Shown here one piece after another: positions 11,445-62,402 of a stretch of DNA of 64,000 nucleotides (position 1 is its first letter; the number at the start of each line of letters is the position of its first letter). The notes under the pieces are model-generated. The model was not told the DNA's origin. It ran no database searches and saw only the letters and a program-made list of their open reading frames with translations. Source of the DNA: Prochloron sp. (GTDB lineage: Bacteria; Cyanobacteriota; Cyanobacteriia; Cyanobacteriales; Prochloraceae); NCBI GenBank assembly GCA_965198675.1, contig OZ240666.1:3172776-3236775 (forward strand), written 5' to 3'. The translations under genes were made by a program, and so were the position numbers.

Positions 11445-12375
11445 TTAAACAAACTGGAAACTATCTGCTGTGAGGTTATCAATTCCTTCGAGAATGAGTA
11501 AGTCTTGAGGAGCACCCCCTATATTAGCAGCAATGGTAGTATTACCTTCCTCTACGGTTAAAGTCAAGTCAGCAAACTCATTCAATTCCTGGTCAACATT
11601 ATTGCCAATACTAATTATATCTCCATCTTCCACACTGAAGTCGGTGATAGTGTTAGCCCCAGCGGGTAATTCCCCACTGACGATAATAAATGTGTCAGCA
11701 CCTTCATTCCCTTGGATGGTATTATTACCACCAGTATTGAGAGAGAAACTATCGTCACCACTACCTCCGAAGACAGTGTCGTTTTGACGGAGGGAGAATA
11801 AGTCGTCTCCCTCGTTACCGAAGAGATAATTCTCACCCCCTCCAGCATTACCTTCCAGAGTGTCATTTCCCAACCCCCCCCACCAGGACATCTCCGGTTC
11901 CGGCAATTAATTCATCGTTGCCTTCATTTCCGTAGAGACGGTTCCCACCAGCTCTTTGAGAGGCGTCCAGAATATCATTCCCCAGCTCCCCGAAGACGCG
12001 ATCGTTGGTTTCAGCAAAAATTCGGTCATTTTCTGAACCTGCATAGAAGCGATCTGGAGCGGTGAAATTAGCTACAACGGCATCGATTTGGTCAACTCCT
12101 GCTCCTGTAAAGGTAATTTGAGCATTAGGGGTGAGTTCTGGTTCCAACACGTCGTCTCCGGGAGTTGTGAAGACCAGTTTTGGTGCTTCATCGACATTCG
12201 TTAAACTAACCGTTACCGTAGCTGTATCGGACAATCCTCCCTGGTCTGTTACAGTTACAGTGAGAGGAAAACTGGTAGTTGTCTCAAAGTCCAACTGACT
12301 GCTATCTGCTACAGTTATTGCTCCTGTAGCTGTATCAATAGTAAAGGCTCCAGATTCGTTCGGGTCGAAGGAGTG
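11445..12375 (-). pseudogene. cadherin-repeat / RTX calcium-binding protein, exon 2 (frameshifted at a G8 run)
   Basis: Cadherin-like segment …[31 protein letters not shown]…VTVTDQGG. It is followed by GGxGxD nonapeptides ([39 protein letters not shown]). Two overlapping ORFs are joined by a 1-nt shift at 11874-11881. Confidence 0.7.
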
Positions 12376-13129
12376 GTCACCCACCCCATCCCTGTAGGAA
12401 CCGTGCATGAAACTTTCGCCTCACACGGCTCCTATGACCTATGGGTTGAAACAAGCCTTTTAGAAGGCTAAAAAACCCTTTGATTACCTCTATCCAGCTG
12501 GTACTGGGGGTTGTGGCAATCTTCGCTTTTTACTATTCCATTTCAGTTTCCTGATTCCTACTCGGATTTACCAGAGCCTTAATTTCGGAATTAGTTTAAT
12601 TTCCTACTCGGCTTTCATCTTACCTGGACCTTAAATTCAGAACTAGGTTATCCTCATCATCCGTATCTCTACGGTGGAATCGGCTATATTTCAGCCACAG
12701 GCGTCCCTATTAGTTAGTAAATTCAGCTCTCGGTCATTGCGGGCAATTGTTTAGCTATTAGCTTTCGTTCCCGCGTCCTACCCGAATGGCCTCGATAGAA
12801 GTATGCCTGCCTTCCCTCTTCGGGTACCACCCCTGGAAGAGAGAACCATTCGTTTTTCCTCGTTCCAAATTAGAAATTGTTTTGAATCTTTAGGTCTCAC
12901 CAGTTCGCCTACCGACCCCCTAAGGAAGCTGCTATCAGTACAATAACGCAGCAGGGTTTTGATTATCGGTTAAGAAGTCCATTAAGGAGGAGGTTGCCTC
13001 TAAACTGAACGCTGTACTCTCACCAATAAGACGCTTTTTCCGGTGATTCGCTTCACCTATTTCTAGGATACCTGTTACACCGAAGGTGCCGCCCTTGGCG
13101 TCCCATGGATTCTCCTCATTAGCAGCAGT

Positions 13130-32924: not shown

Positions 32925-34112
32925 TATAGCGCGTCTAAATCATTTGTGCAAATCGTGACTTTTGTGCTATGATGCCTTCAAACCAAACAAAAAGAGGATA
33001 AAATCATGTTAATGAATGATAAGAATCATCCTAACTTTACTAAAATACAGGAATTGAATGAGTTTATTCACAACACTAAGAATTTAAAAGAATGGAAAAG
33101 AGTACAAGCAGTAAAATTGAGATTATTGGGGTTGGATTATAAAAGTATTGAAGTAAGTTTAGGTGTTTCAACAAGCTTTATTGCCCAAACACAGAGAAAA
33201 TATTTGCTACAAGGTGTATCGGGATTAAGCCTGGGACATCAAGGTTCAAGAAGTTACCTAACTAGGGAGCAAAAAAAAGAAATTATAAAATGGCTCCAGC
33301 CACCAGAAAGACGTAACATTTCTGAATTAGAAAGACATCTTATAGAAGAATATGATGTCCTATTTAGGTCAAAAGAGAGTTATTATCAAATCTTGCGAAA
33401 CGCCAATTTAATATGGCAAAAAGGCAATAAAGAAAATCCCAGAAAAAATCCAGCTCGTATCAAAGAAAGAAATAAAGAATTAGCTGCTATATTACGCGAT
33501 AGCCTCGATAAGATAAAAGCTGAAAAACTTGTGGTATATGCTTTAGATGAGTGTCACCTTCAAGGCGATGAGATTTGTGGTTACCTTTGGGGAGACAAAA
33601 AAAACGAGAAATTGTTAAGATTGATAATTATAGAGCTAGACAAACTTACTATGGTGCTTTAAACATTTGGAATAATGAATTTATTGTTTGTCCTTATCCC
33701 AGCGGCAATGGACAAAATACTGTGAAATTTGTTGAAGAGATAAAGAATCGTCATCCTAACCAACAAATTATGTTACTTTGGGATGGTGCGTCATATCATA
33801 AAGGAGAGGAAATGAAAAAAATCTTAGCCAAATATAATGATGGATTAGCCAAAGATGAATGGTTGATTACTTGTGAATTGTTTGCTCCTTATAGTCCGGA
33901 AGAAAATCCTGTAGAGGGAATTTGGTTACAAGCCAAGAATTTTTTGAGGCGTTTTTATTACAAATGTAAAAATTTTACAGTTGTGAAAAGATTGTTCAAG
34001 CTATTTTTGGCTCTCAAACTTTTCAATCCGGAGAGATTGGAACGATACGATGTGTTTGCACAAATCATTTAGGCTCGCTATATATTTACACAAATGATTT
34101 AGACGTGCTATA
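32925..34112 (+). mobile_element. IS630-family insertion sequence
   Basis: IRL TATAGCGCGTCTAAATCATTTGTGCAAA (32925-32952) matches IRR TTTACACAAATGATTTAGACGTGCTATA (34085-34112) at 26/28. A second IR-like copy lies at 34055-34082 and a solo copy at 34712-34739. TA dinucleotides flank the element. Confidence 0.8.
33006..34072 (+). CDS. IS630 transposase (two frames joined by a -1 shift on A8 at 33597-33604)
   Basis: ORF1 has the HTH region. ORF2 has DDE residues (…ALDECH…, LLWDGASYH, YSPEENPVE). The frames overlap at GGAGACAAAAAAAACGAG. Confidence 0.8.
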
Positions 34113-35148: not shown

Positions 35149-36519
35149 CTACAGTTTTGTTTCTAATTCTTGACGCAGTCGATAAATAATCGTATTCGGT
35201 TCAACAGTAGCGAGAATATCTTGAATAACAGTACTCGGTCCCAAATTTCCCCAACTACAACCCCTTTCTAAATATTTTACCGCCACTTTCCCCACTGCAT
35301 AAGCCCCATATCCAGCAATACCTCCTTGAGTAAGAGCAGTACTTGCATAAGCAGTCAAAGCAGCAGGACTTTCCCACATGGTAACTACTGTACTCTTTCC
35401 CAGTCCTAAAACAAAGCTACTACCAATTTCCCCTAAGAGCAAACTGCCAGAACTCAGGAGTATCTTACGCCAAAGTTTCCCGGCGTCTTTACTGGTCATA
35501 GGTAAACCATATAACTTTGCCAGAGAGCGAATCAAGCCTAAATCAGTTATCATTCCCCCCAGGATATCTAAGAGAGGGATAGGATTAACTGCAACTGCGA
35601 AAGCCTTATATTGGGCATATTTCCAGATTATCTCCTCTGCTTCTTCTCGACGCAATGCAATGGTCTTCTGAGCAATATTTGTTTCGGCGGAGCGCCCTTG
35701 CATGAGAGCATTTAAAGCTAAGAGCGATCGCCCTTCCCGGTTCAAAATCTGGAGAATTATCCCTCGCAATTCATCTATTTGTGGTGGTTGCGGTTCCCAT
35801 TCTTGGGTTACCCTCCCATCCGCCCATTCTACCCGCACTGGTAAGGGTGAGGGTTCCGCAGCTACCATGGCAATTTCCGAACTGGTTAATAATTCTTCTA
35901 CTCCTGTACCAGTTCCCAATGCTTGTAATTGGCGGTAAATGGACTCTCTGTCTTGCTCAGGGTAGAGGTCGATTTTGTTAAATACCAGTATGAGGGGTTT
36001 TTGACTTCTTCGCAGTTCTGATAATGCCTCATATTCAGTACGGGTAATATCTCCAGCTACCACAAAGAGAATTAAATCTGCTTCCTGCGCCACTTCCCGC
36101 GCCATTTCAGCCCTTGTTTCCCCTTCAATTTCATCCAAACCCGGGGTATCGATTAATTCTACCTGTACCTTACCACTGCTGGGGGTCCAACACACGGATT
36201 TTGGCCATTTTGTAACACCATGAAGTGGTCCCGTGGGCATTACTTTGTCTCCTAATAAGGCGTTTATGATGGCTGATTTACCCCGGCTGACTAAGCCAAA
36301 AGTGGCAATGTGAATTACTTTTTGGTCTAGTTTAGCCAAGGCAGATTTTAATGCTTGTAAATCTGGGCGTACTGCTCCTTGCAATTCTACATTGGGAAGA
36401 TGATTTTTCCCGTGACGCCCAAAACTAGAATACCAAGACATTGCTCGCTGTAAACTAGCGCGCGCTCTTGTAAAGTGGGTTTCTTGTTGGCTTTGACTCA
36501 AGGTTAGGGGTTGGTACAA
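35149..36519 (-). CDS. GTP-binding protein with C-terminal DUF697-like membrane region
   Basis: G1 GLVSRGKSAIINAL, G3 DTPG, G4 NKID. It is a paralog of 62403-63827. Confidence 0.8.
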   Translation of the reverse strand: MYQPLTLSQSQQETHFTRARASLQRAMSWYSSFGRHGKNHLPNVELQGAVRPDLQALKSALAKLDQKVIHIATFGLVSRGKSAIINALLGDKVMPTGPLHGVTKWPKSVCWTPSSGKVQVELIDTPGLDEIEGETRAEMAREVAQEADLILFVVAGDITRTEYEALSELRRSQKPLILVFNKIDLYPEQDRESIYRQLQALGTGTGVEELLTSSEIAMVAAEPSPLPVRVEWADGRVTQEWEPQPPQIDELRGIILQILNREGRSLLALNALMQGRSAETNIAQKTIALRREEAEEIIWKYAQYKAFAVAVNPIPLLDILGGMITDLGLIRSLAKLYGLPMTSKDAGKLWRKILLSSGSLLLGEIGSSFVLGLGKSTVVTMWESPAALTAYASTALTQGGIAGYGAYAVGKVAVKYLERGCSWGNLGPSTVIQDILATVEPNTIIYRLRQELETKL

Positions 36520-36696
36520 TTTTTGGGAATGAAAGTTTCACGCAGAGGCGCAGAGGCGCAGAGAGGCACGGAAAGTCATTGTACCTATATATTAGCAAGT
36601 CTTGACAGATTAGATTGTAAACATTTGTAACAAATACTTTAAATCCCCTTGACAGTCTCTGTATTTGCATTATATTATGGAATAAATCAAAAACCT

Positions 36697-36834
36697 GCGA
36701 CAGGTGGCGGAATGGTAGACGCGATAGTTTAAAAAAATCTTGATTCACATCTTGCTTGAAAAGGCCGTAGAGTTGAGAGTTATCGGAAACTATTAACTGT
36801 TTAGTTGTGGAGGTTCAAATCCTCCTCTGTCGCA
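36697..36834 (+). ncRNA. tRNA-like / Y-RNA-like chimeric RNA, unit 1 (Leu-type scaffold)
   Basis: Promoter is TTGACA 36649-36654 with TATATT about 17 nt downstream. The acceptor is GCGACAG/CTGTCGC and the D arm is GGCGGAATGGTAGACGC. A long variable hairpin reads AACT-GTTT-AGTT and the T arm is GGAGGTTCAAATCCTCC. A 7-bp stem ATAGTTT/AAACTAT carries a divergent Ro-type hairpin (CTTGCTTGAAAAGGCCGTAGAGTTGAGAGTTATCG). A T-run follows. Confidence 0.6.
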
Positions 36835-36932
36835 CTTTCGAGTTATTTTAATCCAATGCTTGAATTTGAGATTTTTTTGACCCAACCCCTTGACCAATGA
36901 ATTATTATTGTAGTAAACTGTAAATAAGTAGA

Positions 36933-37032
36933 TGGCGGGATGGTCGCCCTTATTCATTCCTTGCCTGACAAGGCCGCAGAATGAGGTTTATCGTTGGTAA
37001 AGACAATGCGGGTTCGACCCCCGTCCCCGCCG
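36933..37032 (+). ncRNA. tRNA-like / Y-RNA-like chimeric RNA, unit 2 (truncated, no D arm)
   Basis: Promoter is TTGACC 36890-36895 with TAAACT. The terminal stem is GGCGGG/CCCGCC. The module is CCTTATTCATTCCTTGCC-TGACAA-GGCCGCAGAATGAGGTTTATCG. The T arm is GCGGGTTCGACCCCCGT, followed by CATTTTT. Confidence 0.45.
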
Positions 37033-37299
37033 CTCCCATTTTTCTCAAATTACCTCTATAGCAGTGAGCACGTACCTTGACAGTTACCAGTACTAATGAC
37101 TAGTTATAGCAATGTCCCGAAAGCTTTATACCACTGTCATTGAGCTAACTTCGTGCAGATGTATATCCAAGTTTAATCTGTAACTCAAGAGTGCGCGAAT
37201 CGCTCTATCTCAAAATTAGATTGTAAATATTTATTACAAATGCTTGAACCCCCTTGACAGTTACTGTATTTCCAGTGTAATATAAAATATATAAACCTT

Positions 37300-37434
37300 T
37301 GGCGGAGTAGCTTAAATGGATAGAGCATTTGTCCAGATTCCTTATTCGTTTCTTGCCCTAGGGGCCGAAGAATTGAGGATTATCGACTCCTGGCTTTACC
37401 GGGAAAGATGCGGGTTCGACTCCCGTCTCCGCCA
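37300..37434 (+). ncRNA. tRNA-like / Y-RNA-like chimeric RNA, unit 3
   Basis: Promoter is TTGACA 37254-37259 with TAATAT 37278-37283. The stem is TGGCGGAG/CTCCGCCA and the D arm is GCTTAAATGGATAGAGC. The module is TTCCTTATTCGTTTCTTGCCC-TAG-GGGCCGAAGAATTGAGGATTATCG. The T arm is GCGGGTTCGACTCCCGT, followed by a T-run. Confidence 0.6.
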
Positions 37435-37510
37435 TCAATATTTTTCTCTTACCTCTTGACAAGTAAAATATGTTTGTAGTAAAATTAGAATAGAGAAGTT
37501 AATAAAGCTT

Positions 37511-37629
37511 GTGGCGAGTAGCCAAGTGGTAAGGCAGTTTCCTTGTTCGTTCCTTGCCCCATGGGCCGAAGAATTGAGGATTATCGTTTTGGGAACGACT
37601 ATTCGGGGGTTCGACTCCCCCTTCGCCAC
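37511..37629 (+). ncRNA. tRNA-like / Y-RNA-like chimeric RNA, unit 4 (retains a UGG anticodon hairpin)
   Basis: Promoter is TTGACA 37456-37461 with TAAAAT 37480-37485. An 8-bp stem GTGGCGAG/TTCGCCAC is followed by TA and the D arm GCCAAGTGGTAAGGC. The Ro-type module is present. The anticodon-like hairpin is TCGT-TTTGGGA-ACGA and the T arm is GGGGGTTCGACTCCCCC. A T-run follows. Confidence 0.7.
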
Positions 37630-37707
37630 CTTCATTTTTTTTTAATTACCTCTTGACAAATGAAATATGTTTGTAGTAACATTAGAATATAAAAGTTAAT
37701 AAAGTTT

Positions 37708-37839
37708 GTGGCGAGTGGCCGAGTGGTCAAAGGCGAGTTGTTTTTACTATCCCTTGTTTATTCCTTGCCCTATGGGCCGAAAAATTGAGGGTTATCAAAC
37801 TTGATTATATCTTCGGAGGTTCAAATCCTTCCTCGCCAC
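37708..37839 (+). ncRNA. tRNA-like / Y-RNA-like chimeric RNA, unit 5 (Ser/Leu-type D arm)
   Basis: Promoter is TTGACA 37653-37658 with TAACAT 37677-37682. The stem is GTGGCGAG/CTCGCCAC and the D arm is GGCCGAGTGGTCAAAGGCG. A stem AGTT/AACT carries the module CCCTTGTTTATTCCTTGCCC-TAT-GGGCCGAAAAATTGAGGGTTATC. The T arm is GGAGGTTCAAATCCTTC. Confidence 0.65.
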
Positions 37840-37913
37840 CTTCATTTTTATCCAATTACCTCTTGACAGTAAAAATATGTAGTAAAATAAGAATACAGTC
37901 ATTAATAAAGCTT

Positions 37914-38011
37914 GTGGCGAATCGTCTAGAGGCCTAGGACACTTATCCTTATTCGTTCCTTGCCTTACGGGCCGAAGAGGAGAGACGGGGGTTCGAATCC
38001 CCCTTCGCCAC
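37914..38011 (+). ncRNA. tRNA-like / Y-RNA-like chimeric RNA, unit 6 (Glu-type D arm, 3' half of module deleted)
   Basis: TTGACA 37863-37868 is only 14 nt from TAAAAT. The stem is GTGGCGAA/TTCGCCAC and the D arm is GTCTAGAGGCCTAGGAC. The module is truncated after GGGCCGAAG. The T arm is GGGGGTTCGAATCCCCC. Confidence 0.5.
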
Positions 38012-38089
38012 TTTCATTTTTTTTTAATTACCTCTTGACGAATGAAATATGTTTGTAGTAACATTAGAATATAAAAGTTAATAAAGTTT

Positions 38090-38210
38090 GTGGCGAGTAG
38101 CTCAGTGGTAGAGCGAGTTTTCCTTATTCATTCCTTGTCTAATGGGCCGAAGAATTAGGATTATCGACTTATAAGCGACTTGATCGGGGGTTCGATTCCC
38201 TCCTCGCCAC
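38090..38210 (+). ncRNA. tRNA-like / Y-RNA-like chimeric RNA, unit 7 (UAU anticodon-like loop)
   Basis: Promoter is TTGACG 38035-38040 with TAACAT 38059-38064. The stem is GTGGCGAG/CTCGCCAC and the D arm is GCTCAGTGGTAGAGC. The Ro-type module is present. The hairpin TCGA-CTTATAA-GCGA has one mismatch. The T arm is GGGGGTTCGATTCCCTC. Confidence 0.7.
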
Positions 38211-38288
38211 CCCATTTTTATCAAATTACCCCTTAACAAATAAAATATATGTGTAGTAAACTAAAAATATAAAAATTTATAAAATTGG

Positions 38289-38421
38289 TGGCGAGTGGCT
38301 GAGTGGTTGAAAGCAAGTTATTGTAACTTATCCTTGTCCTGATCCTTGGTTGCTTCTTTGCCCTAGGGGCCGTAAATTGAGGGTTATCTAAGGGATCGGG
38401 GGTTCGAATCCCCTCTCGCCA
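38289..38421 (+). ncRNA. tRNA-like / Y-RNA-like chimeric RNA, unit 8
   Basis: Promoter is TTAACA 38233-38238 with TAAACT 38257-38262. The stem is TGGCGAG/CTCGCCA and the D arm is GGCTGAGTGGTTGAAAGC. A hairpin AAGTTA-TTG-TAACTT precedes an expanded module (…CTTCTTTGCCC-TAG-GGGCCGTAAATTGAGGGTTATC). The T arm is GGGGGTTCGAATCCCCT. Confidence 0.6.
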
Positions 38422-38501
38422 GTTTCAATTTTTTTCCAATTACCTCTTGACCAATGAAACATATGTGTAGTATAATTAAAATATAGAGATTAATAAAGCA
38501 T

Positions 38502-38622
38502 GTGGCGAGTAGCTCAATGGTAGAGCGAGTACTCCTTGTTCATTCCTTGCCCTAGGGGCCGAAGAATGAGGATTATCGACTCATAATCGACTAGGTAGGG
38601 GGTTCGATTCCTTCTTCGCCAC
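38502..38622 (+). ncRNA. tRNA-like / Y-RNA-like chimeric RNA, unit 9 (retains a CAU anticodon hairpin)
   Basis: Promoter is TTGACC 38447-38452 with TATAAT 38471-38476. The stem is GTGGCGAG/TTCGCCAC and the D arm is GCTCAATGGTAGAGC. The module is TCCTTGTTCATTCCTTGCCC-TAG-GGGCCGAAGAATGAGGATTATCG. The hairpin TCGA-CTCATAA-TCGA has a canonical Met-type loop. The T arm is GGGGGTTCGATTCCTTC. Confidence 0.7.
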
Positions 38623-38644
38623 ACCATTTTTCTCAAATTCCCCC

Positions 38645-38674
38645 TTGACACTTGAAGTCTTAATGTAGTATAAT
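38645..38674 (+). promoter_or_regulatory. tenth copy of the array promoter, positioned to drive the Ro60/rsr gene
   Basis: TTGACA (38645-38650), an 18-nt spacer, then TATAAT (38669-38674). It has the same context (…AATTCCCCCTTGACA…GTAGTATAAT) as the promoters of units 4-9. Confidence 0.6.
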
Positions 38675-38816
38675 AGGAGTATAAAGCAAAATAAGGAGGA
38701 TTGAGATAAGAGAAGTGAAAAGCGATCGCCTTGGAGAGCCACTAAGGATTTGCAAGGCAATATCACTGGGAAGGTGGGCGATGCCCACCCTACGAAACTC
38801 TTCTGCCCCAAACCAA

Positions 38817-38844
38817 TTTTTGCCTGAAAAGGCTGTAGAATAAA
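38817..38844 (+). promoter_or_regulatory. Ro-module-like hairpin in the rsr 5' UTR, ending 6 nt before the ATG
   Basis: TTTTTGCC-TGAAAA-GGCTGTAGAATAAAA resembles the module cores of unit 1 (CTTGCT-TGAAA-AGGCCGTAGAG) and unit 2 (CTTGCC-TGACAA-GGCCGCAGAATGAGG). Confidence 0.35.
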
Positions 38845-38850
38845 ACAACA

Positions 38851-40158
38851 ATGAATTATCAGTTTTTTACTCAAAAAAAGACAGGAACGCCTCAAAATAA
38901 ACCCATACCGGGACGGGAAGCGGAGATGATTCAAGGGCGCTCCGGGGGCTTCATGTTCGATGCTGGCATTTGGCAAATGCTGCGACGCTGCTTGCTTATT
39001 GGCACAGCTCAAAGCACCTACTATGCAGGAAAGAAAGAATTAACAGAAGATTTTGTCCAAGTTATTAAAGAGGCGATCGCTACTAACCCGAATAAAGTAG
39101 CAGAAAAAATAGTCTACGCTAGTGACGGTAAGGCTATCAATAATAGCGCCCCTTTATTTGCTTTGGTACTCTTATCTATGGGAGCAACACCAGAAGCAAA
39201 AAAGGCATTTCAGGAAATCTTTCCCCAAGTAGTTCGCACTGGAAGTCATTTTTATGAATGGTTGAGCTACACCAAAGCTCTGAGAGGATTTGGGAAGGTA
39301 GTGCGAGAAGTGGGGAGGCAATGGTTATCTCGGGAAAATGTTAAAAATTTAACTTATCAACTACTGAAATACCAACAGCGTCACGGCTTTTCTCATCGGG
39401 ATGCTTTGCGTCTATTTCACGTTCAACCTCCTACGGAAGAGCATAACCAATTGTTTCGTTGGGTAGTCAAAGGTTGGGATGAACTGCCAACAGAAATTCC
39501 CAGGTCAGCACTGGCTCAAATTTGGTGGTATGAGTGGTTGAAACGGAACCCTAATAAAACCCATGAGGCGATTGCCAAAGGTAACCTCACCCACGAAATG
39601 GTTGCCCCAGTAGGGAAAATGGATAAGCAAGCATGGCAATTATTATTTGATAAAATGCCCATTGGTGCAATGCTGCGGAACTTAGGTTCTCTGACGGAAC
39701 TAGGAGTACTCCGGGCTGACACACCAGGTAATTTAGACAGGGTGGAAGGAGTACTCAACAATTCTATCTATCTACGTAAAGGAAGAATCCACCCTATAGA
39801 CGTACTTAAAGCCTTGAAAACTTATCAATCTGGAGGTAGAATCGGGAGGAGCAAGAAAACCTGGAACCCAGTAGGGCGGATTGTGGATATCTTAGAAAAG
39901 GCAGTGGAATTGTCTTTTGATGTGGTGGAACTTACAGAGAAGGTATTCATGCACGCGGTGGATATATCCGGTTCCATGTCTTGTGGTGTGGTGGAGTCAG
40001 TAGGAATGAGCTGCTGCGAGATTGCCACTACTATGGCATTAGTTACAGCTAAGGCGGAGAAAAACTACGCTATTAGGGGATTTTCCACCAAGTTCCGCGA
40101 TTTGGGTATCTCTAAAAAAGATAGCTTTAGGAGTGCAATCGCCAAAGCTAGCAATTAA
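38851..40158 (+). CDS. rsr: Ro60/Rsr ortholog (TROVE domain + start of vWA domain), terminated by an in-frame TAA
   Basis: TROVE-like N-terminal region (…QGRSGGFMFDAGIWQMLRRCLLIGTAQSTYYAGKKELT…). The vWA MIDAS start is AVDISGSMS. The stop at 40156-40158 is in the same frame as the next ORF. Confidence 0.8.
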   Translation: MNYQFFTQKKTGTPQNKPIPGREAEMIQGRSGGFMFDAGIWQMLRRCLLIGTAQSTYYAGKKELTEDFVQVIKEAIATNPNKVAEKIVYASDGKAINNSAPLFALVLLSMGATPEAKKAFQEIFPQVVRTGSHFYEWLSYTKALRGFGKVVREVGRQWLSRENVKNLTYQLLKYQQRHGFSHRDALRLFHVQPPTEEHNQLFRWVVKGWDELPTEIPRSALAQIWWYEWLKRNPNKTHEAIAKGNLTHEMVAPVGKMDKQAWQLLFDKMPIGAMLRNLGSLTELGVLRADTPGNLDRVEGVLNNSIYLRKGRIHPIDVLKALKTYQSGGRIGRSKKTWNPVGRIVDILEKAVELSFDVVELTEKVFMHAVDISGSMSCGVVESVGMSCCEIATTMALVTAKAEKNYAIRGFSTKFRDLGISKKDSFRSAIAKASN

Positions 40159-40455
40159 AACTTTGGAGGTACTGACGCCTCTGTGGCTTATGATTGGATG
40201 ATAAAGAATAAGTTCAAAGCTGATATCATCTGTTTTTGGACAGATAGCGAAAGTTGGGCTGGTAATAGTCATCCTGCTCAAGCATTAGCTAAATATCGTC
40301 AGAAGGTGAATGAGAATATTAAGGCAGTATATGTCACTCTTGCTCCCTATGGTATTACCTTAGTAGATCCAAAAGACCCCTTATCTTGGGATTTGGGTGG
40401 ATTTGATCCAGGAATACCTCGTCTCATCCAAATGCTGGCTCAAGGAGAAGTTTAA
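40159..40455 (+). CDS. rsr: remainder of Ro60/Rsr vWA domain (same frame, downstream of the TAA)
   Basis: NFGGTDASVAYDWMIKNKFKADIICFWTDSESWAGNSHPAQALAKYRQ… is the conserved Ro C-terminal vWA segment (GGTD, TD.E). The whole gene would be 534 aa if the TAA were a sense codon. Confidence 0.7.
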   Translation, partial: NFGGTDASVAYDWMIKNKFKADIICFWTDSESWAGNSHPAQALAKYRQKVNENIKAVYVTLAPYGITLVDPKDPLSWDLGGFDPGIPRLIQMLAQGEV

Positions 40456-43854: not shown

Positions 43855-46800
43855 TTAATTCTCCAAAAAACCACTTTCTCTGAAGTAGCAGAGGTAAGTT
43901 TTAAATAAATCCTGATTAACCTCCGGTAACTTGATACCACTTCCCCTTAAACCATCAACCACATTGCGACAATCGTACTCAATTAAGTTTGTTGTGCTTG
44001 ACGGTGATTCCGGGAAGTTGGGTAAGTAAGGGTAGAGAGGATTTTCCATATCCTCTATCAACTTGGAACGCCAATCAGTATAGTCAATTTCTTCCAAGCT
44101 ATAGCCCAGGGAGCGCACCCACTCAAAAATCTCCCTCAGAGGCACCGATTTTGGATTAATTAAATGAAATGCCTTCCCAAATAAACTGTTTTGTTGTGAG
44201 AGACAAACAATCGCTCGGCTGACATAATCTACTGGGACAAGGTTTTCTGGTAAACCACTCCAGCTAGGAAAACTTTTGAGTCGAATACATCCTTTCACCA
44301 GTCGCGAGAGTAAGTCATCGAAACTAGAGACACCGGTTTGACTGTGACCACTAATCCTCGACGGTCGATAGATAGTTATGGGCAAACCGCGCTTGGCAGC
44401 TTCCCAAACTAACTGTTCTCCTACCCACTTGGTCTGAACATAGCCTACTTTTAGTAAATCATAATGATTGGCAGTTGCTGACTCGAGAATGGGTTGGTCA
44501 GTTTGGGATGTTGAGAATAGAGTAGAAACGTAATGAACAGGTTTGAGCTTTCCTAAACTGGCCAGTCTTAACACGTCTTGGGTTCCCAAAACATTCGCAT
44601 CTTTTAAAAGAGCGTAAGACCACAGATGATGAACCTTAGCTCCAACGTGATAAATAACATCAATTTGTTGGCATAAATTATTATACTCAGTTGCTGAGAG
44701 TCCAAAACGACTGCTTCCTAAATCTCCGATGATGGGAATAATTCGACATGTAAAATTATCACTCCATAAACCAGAAGCTTCTAACTTGTTCTTGAGTCTT
44801 TCTTTGCCAGCATCTACATGCTCGGCGCGAACCAAGCAATAAACAGTAGCGTCCGTTGTGGTCAAGAGTTCAGAAAGTAAATGAATTCCCAAGAAACCTG
44901 TTGCACCGGTTAGGAAAATTCGTTCAATTGGACTGACGATTGGCGCGATCGCAGTTGATGGCTGAATATCTGGATCTAAAGCAGCTTCTGCTTCTAAATC
45001 CCAAGTCTGGGATTGATAGTTTCCAGTTACTAAAGCTTGGTCGATTGCACTAGCCAAATCAGAAACAGAGGGATAATCAAACAATGCCCTTAGAGATAAA
45101 TTAATCTCGAAGGCTTCACGAATGCGAAACATCAGTTGAGTGGCCAATAGGGAATGACCACCTAAGTCAAAGAAACTATCATCAAGGCTAATGGTCTCAG
45201 GGTGCAGGGAGAGAATTTCGGCAAAAAGACTAGCGATAAGAATTTGACTCTCTGTCTTCGGTGCAACGAACTCACTGCTTTGGCTGAAGGCAGCATAGGG
45301 GGCAGGTAATGCTTTGCGGTCTATCTTACCACTGACAGACAGGGGTAATGACGTCAGGGGCACCACTACACTGGGAACCATGTAGTCTGGTAACTGCTGT
45401 TTGCAGTACTCTTTCAGAGCCTTAATGTCAAAATCATCATCCCCAACTACATAGGCTACCAGCCGCTTGTTCCCTGGGGTATCTTCCCAGGGGATGACGA
45501 CGCATTCCTGCACCTGCTGGTGGCCACTGAGCAAGGATTCAATTTCCCCTAGTTCGATACGGAAGCCTCTGATTTTGACTTGATGGTCAATGCGACCGAG
45601 GAATTCAATATTACCATCCCGGCGGTAGCGAGCCAAGTCTCCTGTCTTGTAGAGACGACCTTCGCCGAAGGGATTGGGAATGAATTTTTCTACGGTTAGC
45701 TCCGGGCGATTCAAATAACCTCGGGCTATACCCAGACCACCAATATGAAGTTCTCCAGGAATGCCAATCGGGGTAGGATTACCATTACTATCCAAGATAT
45801 AGATAGTTCGATTCGGCAAAGGACGACCAATAGGCACTCGTGGCATAGAGCTATCGGTCTTTAAGGCTCCAGCAATATCAAATGTGGTTGTGGTAATGGT
45901 TGCTTCTGTTGGACCGTAAGCATTGAGCAAGCCCACTGAATCTAACCAGGGATTTTTTTGGCACAGTTGTTGCCAAAGTTTTATGGTTTCTGGTTGAAGG
46001 ACATCGCTACCAGAAACCACTAGTCGCAGATGAGGTAGAGGGGGAGCATCTTGAGGATTTTGCTGTTGCCAGTGTAACCATTGATGCCAGTAGCTGGGGG
46101 GGAGATTGACAAATGTCAGTTCCAGTTCAATCAATTTCTGGTGAAACTCAGGCACAGTCCACAGGTCAGGGTCTCTCAGCACCAAGGTGGCTCCACTGAT
46201 TAAAGGGGGGAAGATTTCTTCTAGGGCAGCGTCAAAACTGAAAGAGGTAAATTGAAGAAACCGATCCTGACTCGTTACTTGATAATGTTCTGTAATGGCA
46301 TAACAATGGCTAGCAATGGCCTGATGTTCGATTAAAACTCCCTTAGGTTGACCAGTAGACCCAGATGTATAAATGACATAGGCAAGGTGTTGGGGTTGGA
46401 CATTGACAGGAGCTGAAACGGTATCTTGCTGCGCGCACCGCGTAGCGGATCCCTTCGGGATCGCTGACCAATCTGCATCCAAATAAACGACTTCTACCTG
46501 AGATTCGGGCAATCTTGCCCGTAACGCTTTTTGAGTGAGCAAAACAGCAATTCCTGAATCTTCCAGCATATAAGTCAGTCGAGTGTTAGGATAATCAGGA
46601 TCGAGGGTGACATAAGCCCCTCCTGCTTTAAGAATCCCCAACAAGCCCACCACCATCTCTATAGAACGCTCCAGACAAATGCCCACCAAGGTTTCTGGCT
46701 TCACCCCCAAGCCTTGGAGATAGTGAGCTAACTGATTGGCACGGGCATTCAGCTCTTGATAAGTCAACTGCTCACCGGCAAAGACTACTGCCACAGCCTC

Positions 46801-49800
46801 TGGTGTTCGCTCTGCCTGTGCTTCAAATAGGTGATGAATGCAATGTTCTTGGGGATAGTCTACCCTGGTGTCATTCCACTCCACCAACAACTGCTGGCCC
46901 TCGTCAGCACTCAGTAACGGCAACTGCTCAACCCGTTCCTCTGGATTAGTCACAATCCCAGCTAGTAAGGTTTTAAAGTTACTAGCCATCCGAACAATGG
47001 TCTCTCGGTCAAACAAATCACTGTTGTATTCCCAGTATCCGCTTAGCTCGGAAGGGCTATCTACCATTGATAGAGTAAGGTCAAACTTGGCGGTTTGATG
47101 CTCTCGCTCAATAGGGGTGAGGGTTAGGCCAGGAAACTCCCCATAAGTTGGGCTTTGCTCTAAAGCAAACATGACCTGAAACAAGGGACTATGACTCAGG
47201 GAACGTTCTGGTTGCAGAATTTCCACCACTTTTTCAAAAGGAATATCCTGATGACTATAGGCAGACAGAGCAACCTGACGCACCTGCTGAAGCAGTTCTC
47301 TAAAAATGGGATTTCCTTCAGTTCGAGTCCGTAGCACTAACGTATTCACAAAGAAGCCAATCAGGGATTCGGTTTGACGGTGATGGCGATTGGCAACAGG
47401 GGTACCAATGAGGATATCCTGCTGGCTGCTGTAGCGTGAGAGGAGGATGGCAAAGGCAGCCAGCAAGGTCATAAACAAGGTACTATTAGTCCCTCGCGCT
47501 AAGGTCCGCAACTTTTGGGACACAGCGGTGTCGAGCTGAAAATGGAATTGCCCTCCCCGAAAACTTTGTACAGATGGTCGGGGGCGATCCGTAGGTAAAT
47601 TGATCGGGGAGCATACATCAGCTAACTGCCCTTTCCAATAATCTGCCTGTTGCTCAATCACATTTACTTCCAACCACTGACGTTGCCAAGCAGCATAGTC
47701 AAGGTACTGAATTGGTAAAGGTTTGAGGGGAGAAGGTTGCCCAGCCACAAAAGCGGCATAGAGGGTTGACAGTTCCTGTAGAAGCAGTTCCATGGACCAG
47801 CCATCCGACACAATGTGGTGCAGGGTCAGGAATAGGGCATGGTCTTCTGGGGATAACTGCAATATAGTAGCCCTGATTGGCAAATCCTGCTTCAAATCAA
47901 AGGGTTGATCAGCTTCTGCTGTCGCCCATTTCTGGAGGTTCTGTTGGTGATTACCTTCCTGTTGAAGCTCCACTACAGCTAACGTAAACTCAGCAGAGGG
48001 ATCGATTGTTTGCAGTGGGATACCGTTAACAACCTGAATGCGGGTTCGCAGAATACTATGGCGTTGAATAATTTCCTGAAGTCCTCGCTCCAAAGCTCCC
48101 ACATCTAGGGAACCTGTAATTTTCAGGGCAACCGCAATGTTATAGGTGGCGTTAGGCCGTTCTTCTAGCTGATTGAGAAACCAAAGGCGGGCTTGGGCAA
48201 AAGAGAGGGGGAGGGGTTGGCCTTCGGACTCCCTTGGAACAATGTCCGGTAGGGTCAATCCAGGAGTCGTTTGTTGGCTATTAATAATGATGGAGGCTAA
48301 ACCAGCAACTGTGGGGGATTCAAATATAATCTTCACTGGTAATTCAACCTCAAACGCTTCCCGCAGTCGAGAAATAACCTTGGTTGCCAACAACGAATGG
48401 CCCCCGAGGGCAAAAAAGTTATCGTGGATACCCACTCGTTCTTGCCCTAATACCGTAGCTATAATATTGGCAATAACTGTTTCAGCTTGGGTGCGGGGAG
48501 CAACAAAATTTGTTTCTCGCTCTTGTTCAAAATCTGGAATGGGTAACCTACGGCGATCAACTTTACCATTGGGGGTTAAGGGAAAGCTATCCAGCCAGAC
48601 AATGGCATTGGGCACCATGTAATCCGGCAACTTTTGCTTGAGAAAAGAGCGGAGTTCATTTCCACTAACCTGGGTTTCACTTCTTTTCACATAAGCCACC
48701 AGGGACTTATCCCCAGAACCATCTTGTCGTACTATGACGATCCCTTGGCTTACCTGGGGATGTTGATTTAAGACAGCTTCAATTTCTGAAAGCTCAATCC
48801 GAAAGCCGCGAATTTTGACTTGATTGTCGATTCTACCCAGAAACTCAATATTGCCATCCGGTAAATAGCGAACTAAGTCCCCCGTCTTGTAAAGAATCTC
48901 ACCCTCTAGAAAAGAACTGGCAATAAAACGTTCGGCGTTCAGTTCGGGACGATTCAGATAGCCTCTTGCCACTCCATCTCCCCCAGCGTACAGTTCTCCC
49001 ACTACTCCAATGGGAACAGGTTGATGTTGCCCATCTAAGATGTAAACTCGGGTATTGGCAACGGGGCGACCAATGGGAATTGATTGTCCCAAAGAAGCTC
49101 CCGTGGGAACAGGATAGCAACAGGTAAAGGTGGTGTTCTCCGTGGGACCATAGCCATTAATAAACTGACAATGAGGCAGAGTTTGACAACATTTCTGCAC
49201 ATGGGACACAGATAGCACATCTCCACCTGCCATCAGAATACGTAGAGATTGCAAATCTTCCAACCGCTCATCCACCATCAAGTGAAACAATCCAGCGGTG
49301 AGCCATAGGGCTGTGATCTGATGTTGCCCAATGACTTGCCCCAAGGTTTCCAAGGAGGGTTTCGGTTCCGGGAACAGAACCAGACGGGAGCCATTGAGCA
49401 AACTGCCCCAGATTTCCCAGGTAGCTGCATCAAAAGAAACCGATGCCAACTGCAGAAACACATCATTGCTGGTAAATTGAGCATAGTTAGTATTCTTCAC
49501 CAGCCGCACAATATTGCGATGGGTCACGCCGACCCCTTTAGGTTGTCCTGTAGACCCTGAAGTATACATGACATAGGCCAAAGACTTAGCCGTAACTCTC
49601 CCCTCTCTCCCCTCTTTCTCTGCGTCCTCTGCGTCTCTGCGGTTTATCATTCCCGAACCTATATCGATAGAATAAGCCACCTCTGGCAAATTCTCCCTCA
49701 CACCCGTTTCCGTCACAATTACCTGCAAACCAGCATTCTCTACCATGAAAGCCAGTCGCTCAGGAGGATAAGTTGGGTCGAGGGGAACGTAGGCTCCACC

Positions 49801-52800
49801 TGCTTTCAGAATTGCCAACAGGGCGATAATTAGGTTAGGGGACCGCTCTAAACAAACCCCCACCAAACTCTCTGAACCAACCCCCAAGCTTTGCAAATAA
49901 TGGGCCAGTTGGTTTGCCTTTTGATTCAACTCCTGATAGGTTAAGGTTTGGTCTGCCAAAACCACTGCTACTGCATCTGGTGTCTTTTGGACTTGAGCTT
50001 CAAATAACTGGTGAACGCAGGCATTACGAGGATAATCGGTTTGAGTCTGATTCCACTCCAGTAACAATTGCTGTCGTTCAGCAGCACTCAAAATGGGCAA
50101 TTGGGCAATGGTTTGTTCTGGATTGAGAACTATCCCTTCGACAAAAATGTGGAAATTTCTTGCCATCCGCTCAATGGTTGCCCCATCAAACAGGTTGGCA
50201 TTGTATTCAAAAGCGCCAATCAGTTCTGTATTGCTTTGGGTGAGGGATAAGGTTAAATCAAAGGTAGCCCCAGCAGTAGGTTTATCTAAGGGCTTAGGAT
50301 TGACAGTCAGCCCCGACAACTCTAGGGTTTCCTTCGGGACATTTTGCAAGGTAAACATCACCTGAAAGAGGGGACTAACCCCTGGCAGCCGTTCCGGTTT
50401 CAGTTGCTCTACGAGAAGGTCGAAGGGGACATCGGCATGGGCATAAGCGTCTAAGGCCACTTGACGAACCTGGGAAAGCAACTCAAGGAAGGTATGCTCT
50501 AGCTGAGGTCGAGTGCGCAAGACTAAGGTATTAACGAAGAAGCCAATCAAAGCCTCTGTTATGGCTGGGGTTCGGTTGGCGATGGGAGTCCCTACCACAA
50601 TATCGTCTTGATTGCAATAACAGGAGAGAAAAGCGGAAAAGGCAGCAAAAAGTGTAATAAATAGAGTTGTATTAGAGCGTTTGCTTAAGATATGGAGTTT
50701 CTGAGTTAGGTCAGTATTGAAGTGAAAGGGAACCCACCCCCCGTAGCCCCCCTCCCGGGTTCCCCTCCTGGGAGGGGGTAGGGGTGGGTGGGGTTGGGGG
50801 GTGGGTTCAGTTGTGTGAGGACGATCCAAGGGGAGGTTAAGCACTGGGGGAGCATCTGCTAATTGCTGTTGCCAGTATTTAATTTGGGCATCTCTAAACT
50901 TACCTGTGAACCGGTGGCGTTGCCAGTGAGCATAATCTACATACTGAATGGGTAGGTCAGAAAGGGATGGTGCTGTTGACCTATGATAGCTTGTGTAAAA
51001 GCACGAAAGTTCTCTGAGTAAAACTTGTATTGACCAATCATCACTAATGATGTGGTGCATAGTCAGTAGTAAAATTTGCTTTTCCTGTGCTAAGCAAATT
51101 AGCGTAAATCGCACCAGAGGCTCTTGAGTTAAATCGAAGGGGCGATTTTGTTCTTGGAGAATAACTTTCTCAAGGACATCTTTCCCTTCAGTGGTCAAGT
51201 CTACAACTGATAAGGGTAAAGGAATATGGGGGGCAATTATCTGAATTGGCGAACCATTTTGGGTTTCAAATGTCGTTCGGAGTATTTCGTGGCGGTCTAT
51301 GAGAGTGGCGATCGCCTTTTCTAAACTCTTCCTATCCAACGACCCAGTTAGCACAAAAGCTCTGACCAAGTTATAAGCAGCACGATTTTCTTCTAGTTGA
51401 GCCAGAAACCAGAGACCTTGTTGTGTTAGGGATAGGGGAATGTCTGCCTCTCTTGCCGTGGGTGTGGGGGCTAAGGGATATTCAGAAGTGCTAGTATTTA
51501 CGGATTCTATATACTTTGAAAGTAGGCTAATTGTTGGTGCTTCAAAAATCTGCTTCAATGGCATTTCAATACCTAGTTTCTCTGCAATACGAGCCAAAAC
51601 TTGGCTAGCATGAAGGGAGTGTCCCCCTAATTCAAAGAAATTATTCTCAATGCCAATCGGCTCTATTTTAAGGACTTCAGACCAAATTTTGACTAATATT
51701 TCTTCTATATTAGTACGGGGGGCAATAACATTTAATTCTAATGCTGATGTTGCCAGAATTGATTCTGGTTTAGGTAGAGCTAGTCGGTCAATTTTACCAG
51801 TTGCAGTTAAAGGTAATGACTCTAGCCAAATGAAGCAAGCTGGAATCATGTAACTGGGTAATTTATCCCCTAAAATAGCTTTTAATTCTTGAGCTGTAAG
51901 TTTGTTTTGAGGATTTACCGGAGTCAAATAAGCCACTAGCTGTAAATCGCCCACTGCTCCCCCTTTTTCTGTCTGGGCAACTACAACCGCCTCTCCAACA
52001 GCTTCTAGGTTCAACAAAGTGGCTTCCACTTCACTGGTTTCAACCCGATAACCTCGGATTTTAACCTGAAAATCTTTACGGCCTAGGTGCAATAAACAAC
52101 CATCGGGCAACAACTTACCTAAATCACCTGTTTTAAAATATTTATGATTATTTTTACTAATAAACACTCGTTTAGTTAACTCAGGCTGTTGCCAGTACCC
52201 CAAGGCAAGTTGGCGAGAACGAATTACAATTTCACCAACGTCTCCTGGGGCAACCTCCTGTCCTGATTCATCCCAAAGCAAAACTTCCGTTCCCTCAACC
52301 CTATAGCCCGCAGGCACGGTGGGACCAGTGAGAACTGTATCTTTGGTAATGGGAAATTGTCGCACCGGACTAATCTCTGTACCCCCCAGATTCACCATTA
52401 AGGTGCATTGCGGGGAAAAATGGCGCTGAAACAGTTCTGCATCCTGTCGGTAAACGGTTTCGCTCCCAATTTGGATCAGTCGCAACTTGGGAAAATCTGC
52501 TTCCTCGTTCAAAGTGGCAGCGAAGTGACGAAACAGGGTGGCAACCATGAACGTCACGGTAATCTCATTGTCTTGCAACCATCCAGCCAATTTGTGCAAA
52601 TTGATTTGCTTTACGTCTAGAGGCAATAAGGTGGCACCGTTCAACAAGGCACAGTAAATATCTCGCACTGCACCACCGAAGGCGGCTGAATACAACAGTG
52701 AAAAGCGATCGCCACAGGTCATCTTTCCGCTGTTGCTATAGTTGCGATAGAGATTGAGAACATACCGATGGTTTTGCATGACACCCTTGGGGCGGGAGGT

Positions 52801-61667: not shown

Positions 61668-61846
61668 GTCTGTCAGCACCCCGCGCTAAATCTCCGGGCT
61701 GCTCGAGCCTCAGAGCATGAAGCTGCGAGACCAGTCTAAGTCGCAACGAGCGGCTACGTTTTTTGAGTCACGACACCCACGAATGCGTCGCTAGTTCATG
61801 GCCCTGTCGCTTGCGACTAAACAGTTTTACGAGGGGTAAGACAGTG
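61668..61846 (+). ncRNA. candidate structured sRNA (6S-RNA-like extended hairpin), speculative
   Basis: TATAAT lies at 61660-61665. The 5' TGTCT…CCCC pairs with the 3' GGGG…AGACA. An internal helix forms between CATGAA…GCGA and TCGC…TTCATG. The candidate is divergent from purF. No sequence-family match could be verified by eye. Confidence 0.2.
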
Positions 61847-62402
61847 TTGCAAGCCTAACAAACTCTTAAAACAAAGACTCATGCGAACTTAACCCTAGCA
61901 ATAGGAGTATTACGATTAGGGGACAATCTATCTGTATTCATCTGTGTTCATCTGCGTGCATCTGCGGTTCAAAAATTGCCACTTATGTCGGTAGAATTGC
62001 CACTAGAGCAACTGGTTCTTTTGATGTTGCCACTGTCAAGGGGAGGATTTCAGGGATTAGCTACAAATATTGTCAAGCCATTCATCGTTCATGATGGATA
62101 CAGTTACCAATTTCACGGCGGATAAATCCGCCGAGTCGAACTTCCTGGGCGAGTTAAAACATCGCGGCTTCCGTTCTCCCGAAAAATATCGTGATAAATG
62201 TCTGTAACCGCTGGGCTATTGAATCTCCCACGAAGGAAACAGCTTGGATTATCGAACAAGCACTCAGAACAATCAAGAAAAAGGGGTGTCAGGAGGGATA
62301 GGGGCAGAAATGTTGAATCTATAAAAATTATCAATTATCAATTTTTGGGTGTCTATTGCCGTGCCCCCACCACACACCCTACATCCCTTGGCATAAATTT
62401 GT

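Follow-up and report, generated by a model that had tools for sequence, protein, structure and literature searches.

Bacterial Y RNAs of the YrlA class bind Rsr, the bacterial orthologue of Ro60 (PMC4201824; 10.1101/312249). The ends of these RNAs lie in the Ro helix, the T arm comes before the D arm, the acceptor-like stem is closed and a poorly conserved 'V' stem-loop precedes the T arm (PMC4201824; 10.1101/312249). The YrlA of M. smegmatis is cut by RNase P and receives CCA, and in cyanobacteria few YrlAs were described by Chen et al. (2014), some of them 'with a longer acceptor stem', for which Stanieria cyanosphaera is the case cited (PMC4201824). An origin of YrlA from dimeric tRNA transcripts was also proposed earlier (PMC4201824; 10.1101/312249). 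Here, a stretch of 64,000 nt from Prochloron sp. (contig OZ240666.1; the whole stretch is referred to as the window) was analysed, in which nine tRNA-like units, numbered u1 to u9 and all on the + strand (36698-38622), lie upstream of rsr, the gene for the Ro60 orthologue. The nine units are probably bacterial Y RNA genes that belong to the YrlA lineage and have their elements in the usual order of a tRNA gene.

A covariance model (R1) built from 32 diverse relatives of the units (alignment A2), with its structure set by hand, produced exactly nine matches and no tenth over the 64-kb window, with E-values from 2.5e-24 to 1.2e-9 and scores spanning 48-110 bits. By direct reading of the sequence, the RNA of each unit measures 97-136 nt. 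A consensus scan detected 24 promoter-like sites in 36500-38900 compared to 5.8 ± 2.6 in shuffles, and those preceding u1-u5, u7-u9 and rsr showed a TTGACA-type -35 element, a 17-18 nt spacer and a TAnAAT-type -10 element; in front of u6, the -35 hexamer TTGACA was found by regular expression at 37863-37868, with a -10 element unscored by the scan and the same layout as in the other units. The leader, of about 25 nt, ends in ...TTAATAAAGYTTG in u4-u7 and u9, and a T-run lies behind each of the nine units, where no canonical hairpin terminators were found. The terminal helix GTGGCGAG/CTCGCCAC is common to u4-u9, and U8 and the T arm GGGGGTTCGAWTCCC are present in the window units. In all these points an earlier note on the same DNA, made from its letters alone, was borne out, as it had described nine same-strand units with a sigma70-like promoter, the conserved leader and a T-run each, the terminal helix in six of them, U8 and the T arm.

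When 32 diverse units were aligned (A2), the Ro-type hairpin appeared as an insert of 45-55 nt that separates nt 28 from nt 29 in the 5' strand of the anticodon stem and yields a three-way junction. The two nt that follow the D arm and N26 pair with the two nt just before the variable loop, and within the split stem the order is an A-rich linker, the Ro-type hairpin, an invariant UUAU and a 3-bp stem with a 7-nt loop. The pairs 27-28/42-43 beside the insert covary (CC/GG, CU/AG, CG/CG, UU/AA, GU/AC and GC/GC), and because of these covarying flanking pairs and the order of the elements, the unit was read as a cloverleaf that is complete but has its 5-bp anticodon stem interrupted behind nt 28. 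The consensus comprises the acceptor helix, U8, the D arm, the 5-bp anticodon stem with its 7-nt loop, an AGGUC-type variable loop and the T arm, whereas the inserted Ro arm consists, from base to tip, of a 9-bp helix, an asymmetric internal loop, a U-A and a U.G pair, a bulged C, a 4-bp stem and a tri- or GNRA loop. Thus, the hairpin that the earlier note had located at the anticodon-arm position is indeed there, but as a branch inserted in the anticodon stem and not as a replacement of the arm. A reading of the 7-nt-loop hairpin as a 4-bp stem was rejected, as the covarying pairs 27-28/42-43 show it to be the distal part of the split 5-bp anticodon stem.

In the final structure, 97.2% of the cells of A2 are paired. 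Double changes were detected in 22 of the 36 pairs of A2, compared to 14.3 in shuffles (none of 500 reaching the observed value) and 6-10 in slid controls, and in the 150 best R1 matches they affected 21 of 33 pairs against 9.1 in shuffles. All helices covaried in A2 and in these best matches, so that the covariation expected for the module of the earlier note was found. RNAalifold, run without a preset structure, recovered the acceptor, D, T, apical Ro and distal anticodon helices and, at the base of the Ro arm, preferred nine continuous pairs (UCCUUGUUC/GAA(U)UGAGGR) followed by the asymmetric internal loop. In this respect the fold differs from that of the earlier note, with a basal register TCATTC/GAATGA and a TTGT loop, which leaves two pairs unpaired in at least half of the sequences and had to be replaced by the better fitting nine-pair register. 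About 77 of 333 units (e.g. 9220-9340 of locus L005) are without the 5' strand of the basal Ro helix and have a T-loop TGTAAAT; in this subclass, the missing partner strand may lie downstream of UUAUCG.

Among the window units, the full family consensus is present in u4, u7 and u9 alone, and these three keep the distal anticodon-like stem-loop, of which a variant form is found in u3. Unit u4 (37512-37629; R1 108.5 bits, E 4.3e-24), preceded by the promoter-like site TTGACA-18-TAAAAT at 37456-37485 (consensus scan 11/12), is complete, with an 8-bp acceptor helix (G-1 at 37511), the D arm, GU/AC as pairs 27-28/42-43, the Ro arm and an anticodon-like loop TTTGGGA at 37588-37594. Complete units are also u7 (38091-38210; R1 103.8 bits, E 5.9e-23; Rfam tRNA 44.9 bits), with the site TTGACG-18-TAACAT at 38035-38064 (9/12) and the anticodon-like loop CTTATAA at 38168-38174, and u9 (38503-38622; R1 109.5 bits, E 2.5e-24), with the site TTGACC-18-TATAAT at 38447-38476 (11/12), the loop CTCATAA at 38580-38586 and an ACCA encoded right behind C73.

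The other six units are variants of this consensus. Unit u1 (36698-36833; R1 55.2 bits, E 2.5e-11; Rfam tRNA 37.4 bits), preceded by TTGACA-18-TATTAT at 36649-36678 (11/12), has a class-II (Leu-like) scaffold; its anticodon-type stem of 7 bp, ATAGTTT/AAACTAT, is capped by the Ro arm, and behind it comes a variable-arm hairpin. In u2 (36934-37032; R1 49.7 bits, E 5e-10), behind TTGACC-18-TAAACT at 36890-36919 (9/12), the D arm is deleted in the alignment, and this D-arm-less variant consists of the acceptor, a 5-nt linker, the Ro arm, a short hairpin and the T arm. In addition to the Ro arm, a full cloverleaf is found in u3 (37301-37434; R1 81.9 bits, E 1e-17; Rfam tRNA 43.6 bits; site TTGACA-18-TAATAT at 37254-37283, 10/12), where the distal hairpin is enlarged, and a class-II-like D arm, the Ro arm and a degenerate distal hairpin in u5 (37709-37839; R1 67.3 bits, E 3.2e-14; site TTGACA-18-TAACAT at 37653-37682, 10/12). 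Unit u6 (37915-38011; R1 53.4 bits, E 6.5e-11) is a short form, in which the 3' strand of the Ro helix is partly deleted and the distal anticodon hairpin wholly so. Finally, u8 (38289-38422; R1 48.1 bits, E 1.2e-9; Rfam tRNA 39.7 bits), behind TTAACA-18-TAAACT at 38233-38262 (9/12), combines a class-II-like D arm with an extra hairpin and an extended Ro arm, is without the distal anticodon hairpin and has G as N73.

A candidate regulator site, the inverted repeat TTGTAAACATTTGTAACAA, was found by regular expression at 36615-36633 on the + strand, with a second copy at 37221-37239. In both places this inverted repeat (TTGTAAAnATTTnTTACAA) lies 15-20 nt ahead of a -35 element, that of u1 and that of u3 respectively, and it also precedes the first unit of a Prochloron-like scaffold (L003) syntenic with the window. 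Between u2 and u3, the segment 37077-37240 consists of a promoter-like TTGACA and about 160 nt that were matched neither by R1 nor by its permuted counterpart R2 (see below); it is absent from L003.

The resemblance of the units to tRNA extends to single nucleotides. In 333 distinct full-length units, U8 and A58 are present in 100%, A14 in 99.7%, G53 in 99% and T54 and C61 in 98%, the variable loop is AGGUC-like and the Levitt pair covaries, being G15:C48 in 198 units and A15:U48 in 75. The anticodon-like loop of the 155 units with a perfect distal stem shows U33 in 97%, R37 in 99% and Y32 in 86%, with 31 different triplets. Between close orthologues from different genomes (88-98.5% identical), positions 34-36 change fastest (0.45, 0.25 and 0.18, compared to a mean of 0.073), whereas U33 (0.04), UUAU (TTAT, 0.003), N73 and the first three acceptor pairs (both 0.00) are fixed. 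As the architecture of the loop is kept and the triplet varies freely, the RNAs probably mimic tRNA rather than decode, and the one acceptor sequence common to units with different triplets argues against a synthetase-specific identity. ARAGORN made no tRNA call anywhere in the window, and the Rfam tRNA model RF00005 passed its gathering score on six of the nine units, in each case by skipping 48-74 nt. Compared to a bona fide tRNA, the anticodon stem is interrupted, the anticodon is not conserved and the acceptor has 8 bp instead of 7; by analogy with tRNA-Sec, this longer helix may keep the RNAs out of translation.

For the comparison with YrlA, canonical members were read in the sequence adjoining the Ro gene in mycobacteriophage ET08 and in Streptomyces phage Belfort. 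In both, the order is the Ro 5' strand (ending in GGUUAYC), a hairpin of 3 bp with a 7-nt loop, two nt, AGGUC, the T arm, the closed acceptor, the D arm and the Ro 3' strand; in the loop of the small hairpin, positions 2 and 6 are U and A, equivalent to U33/R37, and the two nt before AGGUC pair with the two nt after the D arm. In other words, opening the cyanobacterial unit in the Ro loop and joining its ends at the acceptor gives canonical YrlA, and from its sequence the YrlA 'V' stem-loop appears to be the distal anticodon hairpin. A covariance model of the 32 seed units permuted in silico (R2) matched the Ro loci of five actinophages over the full length, with 94.0, 72.1, 57.5, 57.5, 51.0, 49.2 and 45.3 bits, whereas R1 gave at most 39 bits at those places and had true tRNAs as its best phage matches. 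The reverse was observed in the window, where R2, unable to bridge the spacers, reached at most 43 bits compared to the 48-110 bits of R1. Since R2 detects canonical YrlA over its full length and R1 does not, the units are homologues of YrlA in tRNA order, and the proposal of the earlier note that they are tRNA/Y-RNA chimeras related to YrlA by circular permutation holds. In Rhodococcus phage Trina (locus L130, 2137-2345 and 4136-4990), it was also observed that a 209-nt feature annotated as 'tRNA-OTHER' (pseudo) overlaps YrlA matches of R2, and that a band-7-like gene comes after the Ro gene.

With YrlA the units share the vicinity of rsr, a Ro60-binding helix with a bulged C, whose GNCGAA-type strand has the exact published motif in a part of the units, and tRNA-like D and T arms with the same invariant tertiary nucleotides and the 15:48 covariation, in addition to the homology detected by R2 with the phage YrlAs. 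They differ from it in topology: in YrlA both RNA ends are located within the Ro helix, the T arm is 5' of the D arm and a loop closes the acceptor-like stem, whereas the units have the D arm first, an open 8-bp acceptor with N-CCA behind it, and a Ro helix closed into a hairpin. The units thus belong to the YrlA lineage by homology yet fail its topological definition. They also occur in arrays of 1-9, whereas YrlA is found as 1-2 genes. A YrlA likewise gains a free tRNA-like end when RNase P opens its acceptor-like stem and CCA is added, but there the open end arises from cutting a closed loop and leaves two pieces, whereas in the units it is part of the encoded design and the RNA would stay in one piece. 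The Rfam Y RNA families gave no match in 36500-38900, either at gathering thresholds or at E <= 10, where only tRNA matches were obtained. Because the canonical phage YrlAs do not get any Rfam match either, Rfam 15 is without a bacterial Y RNA family and its silence on the units is uninformative.

The distribution of the relatives was analysed by a pattern scan of one genome per species with GAATN{0,1}GAGRRTTATCN{10,30}GGTTCRANTCC, which returned at least 120 stretches. Relatives were present in at least 113 genome tiles, almost all of them cyanobacterial and nearly always directly upstream of rsr, and R1 produced 382 matches in 100 related tiles of 8 kb. All named matches among those listed are from cyanobacteria, with the exception of Lihuaxuella thermophila and one Brumimicrobium. 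In the first of these, a Firmicute, five units in tRNA order (783-1493 of locus L106, - strand) lie upstream of an rsr 66% identical to the cyanobacterial gene, which from the sequence looks like horizontal transfer of the whole module. The match in Brumimicrobium (Bacteroidota; L098) was discarded as a chance match inside a coding region. Among the matches listed, rsr is on the same strand in 101 of 120 tiles, and in 16 further tiles the array is at a tile or contig edge, facing the next tile. The true exceptions among them are two: L042, in which rsr is deleted and a remnant of its leader is left, with a gene for a CCA-adding enzyme preceding the units, and L109, where a stretch of 900 nt around the array is free of rsr. 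In viral contigs, the pattern had no match. Among the matches listed, the module is almost never found away from rsr, which favours the interpretation of the earlier note.

The number of units and their spacing varied among the loci, as was already apparent in the first ones examined: Gloeothece PCC 7424 has two units upstream of rsr, L003 has seven, and in Tolypothrix NIES-4075 a single promoter precedes five units spaced by about 35-40 nt, with one more unit following rsr. The locus is intact in Gloeothece citriformis PCC 7424, Nostoc punctiforme and Tolypothrix NIES-4075. Altogether, 105 rsr loci have 1-9 upstream units, with a mode of 3-4 and a single unit in seven loci; the nine of the window are the maximum among the loci listed, since arrays elsewhere hold 1-7 units. 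The spacer between units has a median of 55 nt among the relatives, and a strict promoter of its own was detected for only 77 of 339 units, and from these short spacers and few promoters it follows that most arrays are polycistronic and need tRNA-type processing of the ends. The window array is the largest, and the sole one with a promoter per unit, among the loci listed. The earlier description of a self-promoted array is thus correct for the window but does not apply as the general layout, as most relatives are polycistronic. The last unit ends 36-37 nt before the ATG of rsr in 70 loci, and in 48 of the 105 rsr loci, many of them from Nostocales (e.g. L005 11715-11824), one D-arm-less unit follows about 27 nt past the rsr stop codon; no unit was found after the rsr stop codon in the window.

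Signals at both ends of the units resemble those of tRNA genes. G-1 is present with C73 in 85% of the units; because positions -1:73 are pairable in 97% and positions -2:74 in 43% only, the acceptor helix has 8 bp and ends there. RNase P prefers U as the leader nucleotide 5' of its cut, and U occupies position -2 in 79% of the units, so that a cut by RNase P leaving G-1 on the RNA would fall right behind this U. Behind C73, ACCA is encoded in 36-39% and CCA in 7-12% of the units, depending on the set of units counted. A gene of the CCA-adding enzyme/poly(A) polymerase family was also observed directly upstream of the array and on the same strand in four loci (L018 2680-4095, -; L020 5061-6524, -; L042 4228-5586, +; L063 7676-7984, -); this linkage, limited to one clade and present in Microseira, is consistent with tRNA-type 3' ends.

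The rsr gene of the window (38851-40455, +) encodes a protein with TROVE and vWA_Ro60 domains (Pfam), starts 228 nt behind the end of the array and has a promoter-like site of its own, TTGACA-18-TATAAT at 38645-38674 (12/12), as had been described before in terms of a Ro60/Rsr orthologue behind a tenth copy of the promoter. A feature that had escaped mention is an in-frame TAA at 40156-40158 that splits the gene; four relatives have CAA (Gln436) at this position, and the flanking codons are intact. The 120 best Rsr homologues are of about 534 aa and all uninterrupted. The closest Rsr sequences among the matches listed are from Candidatus Paraprochloron (94% identical) and the Prochloron-like scaffold (93%), both with an intact rsr. 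The TAA reflects either an inactivation of recent date or an error of sequencing. Across Nostocales, Oscillatoriales, Chroococcales and Pleurocapsales, the Rsr proteins are about 80% identical, and a close homologue showed full-length homology (1e-71) to the crystallised D. radiodurans Rsr and Xenopus Ro60 (PDB 2NVO and 1YVP).

Between this promoter and the start codon, the leader of rsr contains a hairpin, TTTTTGCCTGAAAAGGCTGTAGAAT (38817-38841, +), that reproduces the Ro-binding helix in its apical half. The equivalent hairpin is present in 76 of 81 distinct cyanobacterial rsr leaders and consists of UU, a 4-bp stem, a mostly GNRA loop, a 1-nt bulge (C in 48, U in 23 and A in 5) and two more pairs, and the stem covaries (GCCC/GGGC, GCCU/AGGC and GCCG/CGGC). 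In 50 of the distinct leaders, its end is 14 nt away from the ATG, and in most lineages the Shine-Dalgarno GGAG lies within the leader strand equivalent to the Ro-contact strand. It is thus a candidate site of translational autoregulation: this Y-RNA-like hairpin overlaps the ribosome-binding site, and through it Rsr may repress the translation of its own mRNA.

Several other explanations of the array have to be weighed. Canonical YrlAs could still be encoded if the RNA extended from the Ro 3' strand of one unit across the spacer to the Ro 5' strand of the next, the spacer serving as acceptor loop. Across two junctions of the Tolypothrix NIES-4075 array R2 did give 72.7 and 68.9 bits, treating the 35-nt spacer as an acceptor loop, and this behaviour of the model suggests an explanation for the few cyanobacterial YrlAs 'with a longer acceptor stem' (PMC4201824); a second protein search for the Stanieria cyanosphaera locus returned no match named Stanieria. 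Between neighbouring units, too, most of the acceptor strand can pair (mean 6.0 of 7 pairs), but the pairing within units is better, with 7/7 in 328 of 344 units and a mean of 6.9. Moreover, the Ro helix is closed by a loop of 3-6 nt, often GNRA, that leaves no room for transcript ends, the arrays start with a complete 5' half and finish with a complete 3' half, single-unit loci exist, and the acceptor 3' strand is followed right away by an encoded (A)CCA in about half of the units. In the window, every spacer contains a promoter and a T-run and R2 scores below R1. For these reasons RNAs spanning two units are very improbable. Working tRNA genes with an intron-like insert, which would be removed or tolerated in a tRNA used as is, would account for the six units above the Rfam tRNA threshold, for the complete cloverleaf with U33/R37 loops and AGGUC variable loop, and for the encoded CCA. 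However, the 'anticodon' positions are the fastest changing ones of the RNA, one acceptor sequence goes with different triplets, the acceptor helix has 8 bp, ARAGORN calls none of the units and these occur, among the loci listed, almost only at rsr; besides, the insert is among the most conserved parts (the TTAT and both Ro strands), and no bacterial machinery is known to us that would splice it from an anticodon stem. A decoding function is therefore hardly tenable.

A mainly cis-acting array, forming a structured leader of the rsr mRNA that controls its processing, stability or translation, would fit with the few promoters and short spacers of the relatives, with the constant distance between the last unit and the rsr ATG and with the mimic of the Ro site over the ribosome-binding site. 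On the other hand, a promoter and a T-run go with every unit of the window and a separate promoter (12/12) with rsr, a further unit lies past the rsr stop codon in 48 loci, the units persist in L042 where rsr is deleted, and the signals for tRNA ends (G-1:C73, U at -2 and ACCA) are conserved, so that such a role as the main one is quite improbable, although roles in cis and as free RNAs are not exclusive. A refinement of the explanation as Y RNAs, rather than an alternative to it, is that the RNAs are decoys or sensors tethered to Rsr for tRNA-targeting nucleases or tRNA damage, with the loops as baits. The strictly kept loop architecture with 31 kinds of triplets and the presence of several units with different loops per genome would agree with it, and elsewhere rsr and YrlA are found in RNA-repair operons that respond to damaged tRNA (10.1101/312249; PMC7790460). 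Nevertheless, the triplets change at the rates of unconstrained loop positions (T-loop 59, D-loop 16), which neutral drift fits equally, and no RNA ligase or nuclease gene was consistently linked in the loci examined, so that this more specific function seems unlikely as matters stand.

Some results weigh against the units being YrlA-lineage Y RNAs in tRNA order. The complementarity between neighbouring acceptor strands is one of them. Another is that Rfam offers no bacterial Y RNA family, and hence no curated model for the assignment, and a third that the published Ro-site motif GNCGAAN0-1G is present in its exact form in five of the nine window units and in 103 of 333 overall; the variants, GGCCGACGA (the commonest) and GGCCGTAG, differ from it by one base. 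The window locus itself may be decaying, given the premature stop of rsr, the absence of the D arm in u2 and that of the distal hairpin in u6 and u8. Lastly, what goes beyond the gene, that is transcript, processing and binding, we infer from sequence.

With the nine units as Y RNA genes of the YrlA lineage, their RNAs would probably be matured like tRNAs and bound by Rsr. Transcription would start at the promoter of each unit in the window and, in most relatives, at that of a single operon with rsr. RNase P would then cut one position upstream of its usual site, keeping G-1:C73 and the 8-bp acceptor helix, the 3' end would be trimmed to an N74-CCA that is either encoded or added, and the body would fold into the L-shape of tRNA. 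Rsr would bind the branch helix, and the tRNA-shaped part could tether or gate Rsr through a factor that recognises the shape of tRNA, as proposed for YrlA.

The likeness of the branch helix to metazoan Y RNAs was compared with human Y1 RNA (hY1), whose sequence, taken from published primers (GGCTGGTCCGAAGGTAGTGAGTTATC and CTTCTCACTACTGCACTTGACTAGTCT; PMC3928194), agrees with the one given in the earlier note. The units have GGGCCGAAGAAU(U)GAGGAUUAUC where hY1 has GGUCCGAAGGUAGUGAGUUAUC and CCUUGCCC where it has CACUUGACU, and both share the bulged C followed by G.U and A-U, an internal loop and a long basal helix. This likeness is confined to the Ro-binding helix, as the metazoan Y_RNA model RF00019 gave no match at E <= 10 in 36500-38900, and metazoan Y RNAs have their ends in that helix and no tRNA body.

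Families with one member in standard and another in permuted order have precedents. The two-piece tmRNA of some cyanobacteria and alpha-proteobacteria is encoded by a circularly permuted gene. Permuted tRNA genes of Cyanidioschyzon are cited in the literature on YrlA (10.1101/312249, where they appear as a citation). In these cases too the ends are set by tRNA-processing enzymes, but the products are tmRNA or true tRNAs and not partners of Ro60; in the case of Ro60, it is the permuted form (YrlA) that is widespread, and the form in standard order is newly recognised. The b7a-tRNA predicted by Burroughs and Aravind (2016), a tRNA-like gene of RNA-repair neighbourhoods, occasionally beside Rsr, is according to the citing paper close to an authentic tRNA and linked to Band-7, and that brief description mentions no Ro-binding insert (10.1101/312249); b7a-tRNA may nevertheless overlap with the present units. 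Neither Band-7 nor RtcB was found among the open reading frames (ORFs) scanned next to the window rsr. Among the papers searched, no description of Y RNAs in tRNA order or of cyanobacterial Y RNA arrays was found.

Elsewhere in the window, a HEARO RNA was detected at 61672-61893 (124 bits) and matches to group II intron domains at 3294-3371 (+) and 12358-12433 (-). Judged by eye, a two-ORF element at 33006-34072 may be a transposase, and the translation of an ORF at 43855-53313 (-) reads as a 3152-aa protein similar to nonribosomal peptide synthetases.

Y RNAs are conserved from bacteria to humans, and both their origin and the partner of the tRNA-like domain are still debated. Judging from the sequences, the idea of the earlier note that the units are a 'missing link' between tRNAs and Y RNAs is plausible, as a large conserved set of Y RNAs made of a tRNA plus one arm is a concrete intermediate for the hypothesis of a tRNA origin. 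Going further, and only tentatively, the units could be the ancestral unpermuted form of YrlA, i.e. tRNAs that carry a Ro60-binding hairpin in the anticodon stem, from which canonical YrlA would have derived when transcripts of a tandem array started and stopped inside neighbouring Ro hairpins; this order of events is possible, if somewhat doubtful. If so, the units would be a living intermediate for the 'dimeric tRNA' origin proposed by Sim and Wolin. For annotation, the model covers several hundred genes that tRNA finders and Rfam miss or mislabel. As regards cyanobacteria, their Ro60 would be served by one-piece RNAs matured by RNase P and the CCA enzyme, and with a free N-CCA end on an 8-bp helix these RNAs would be possible substrates for tRNA enzymes, be it in aminoacylation or in the sensing of damage.

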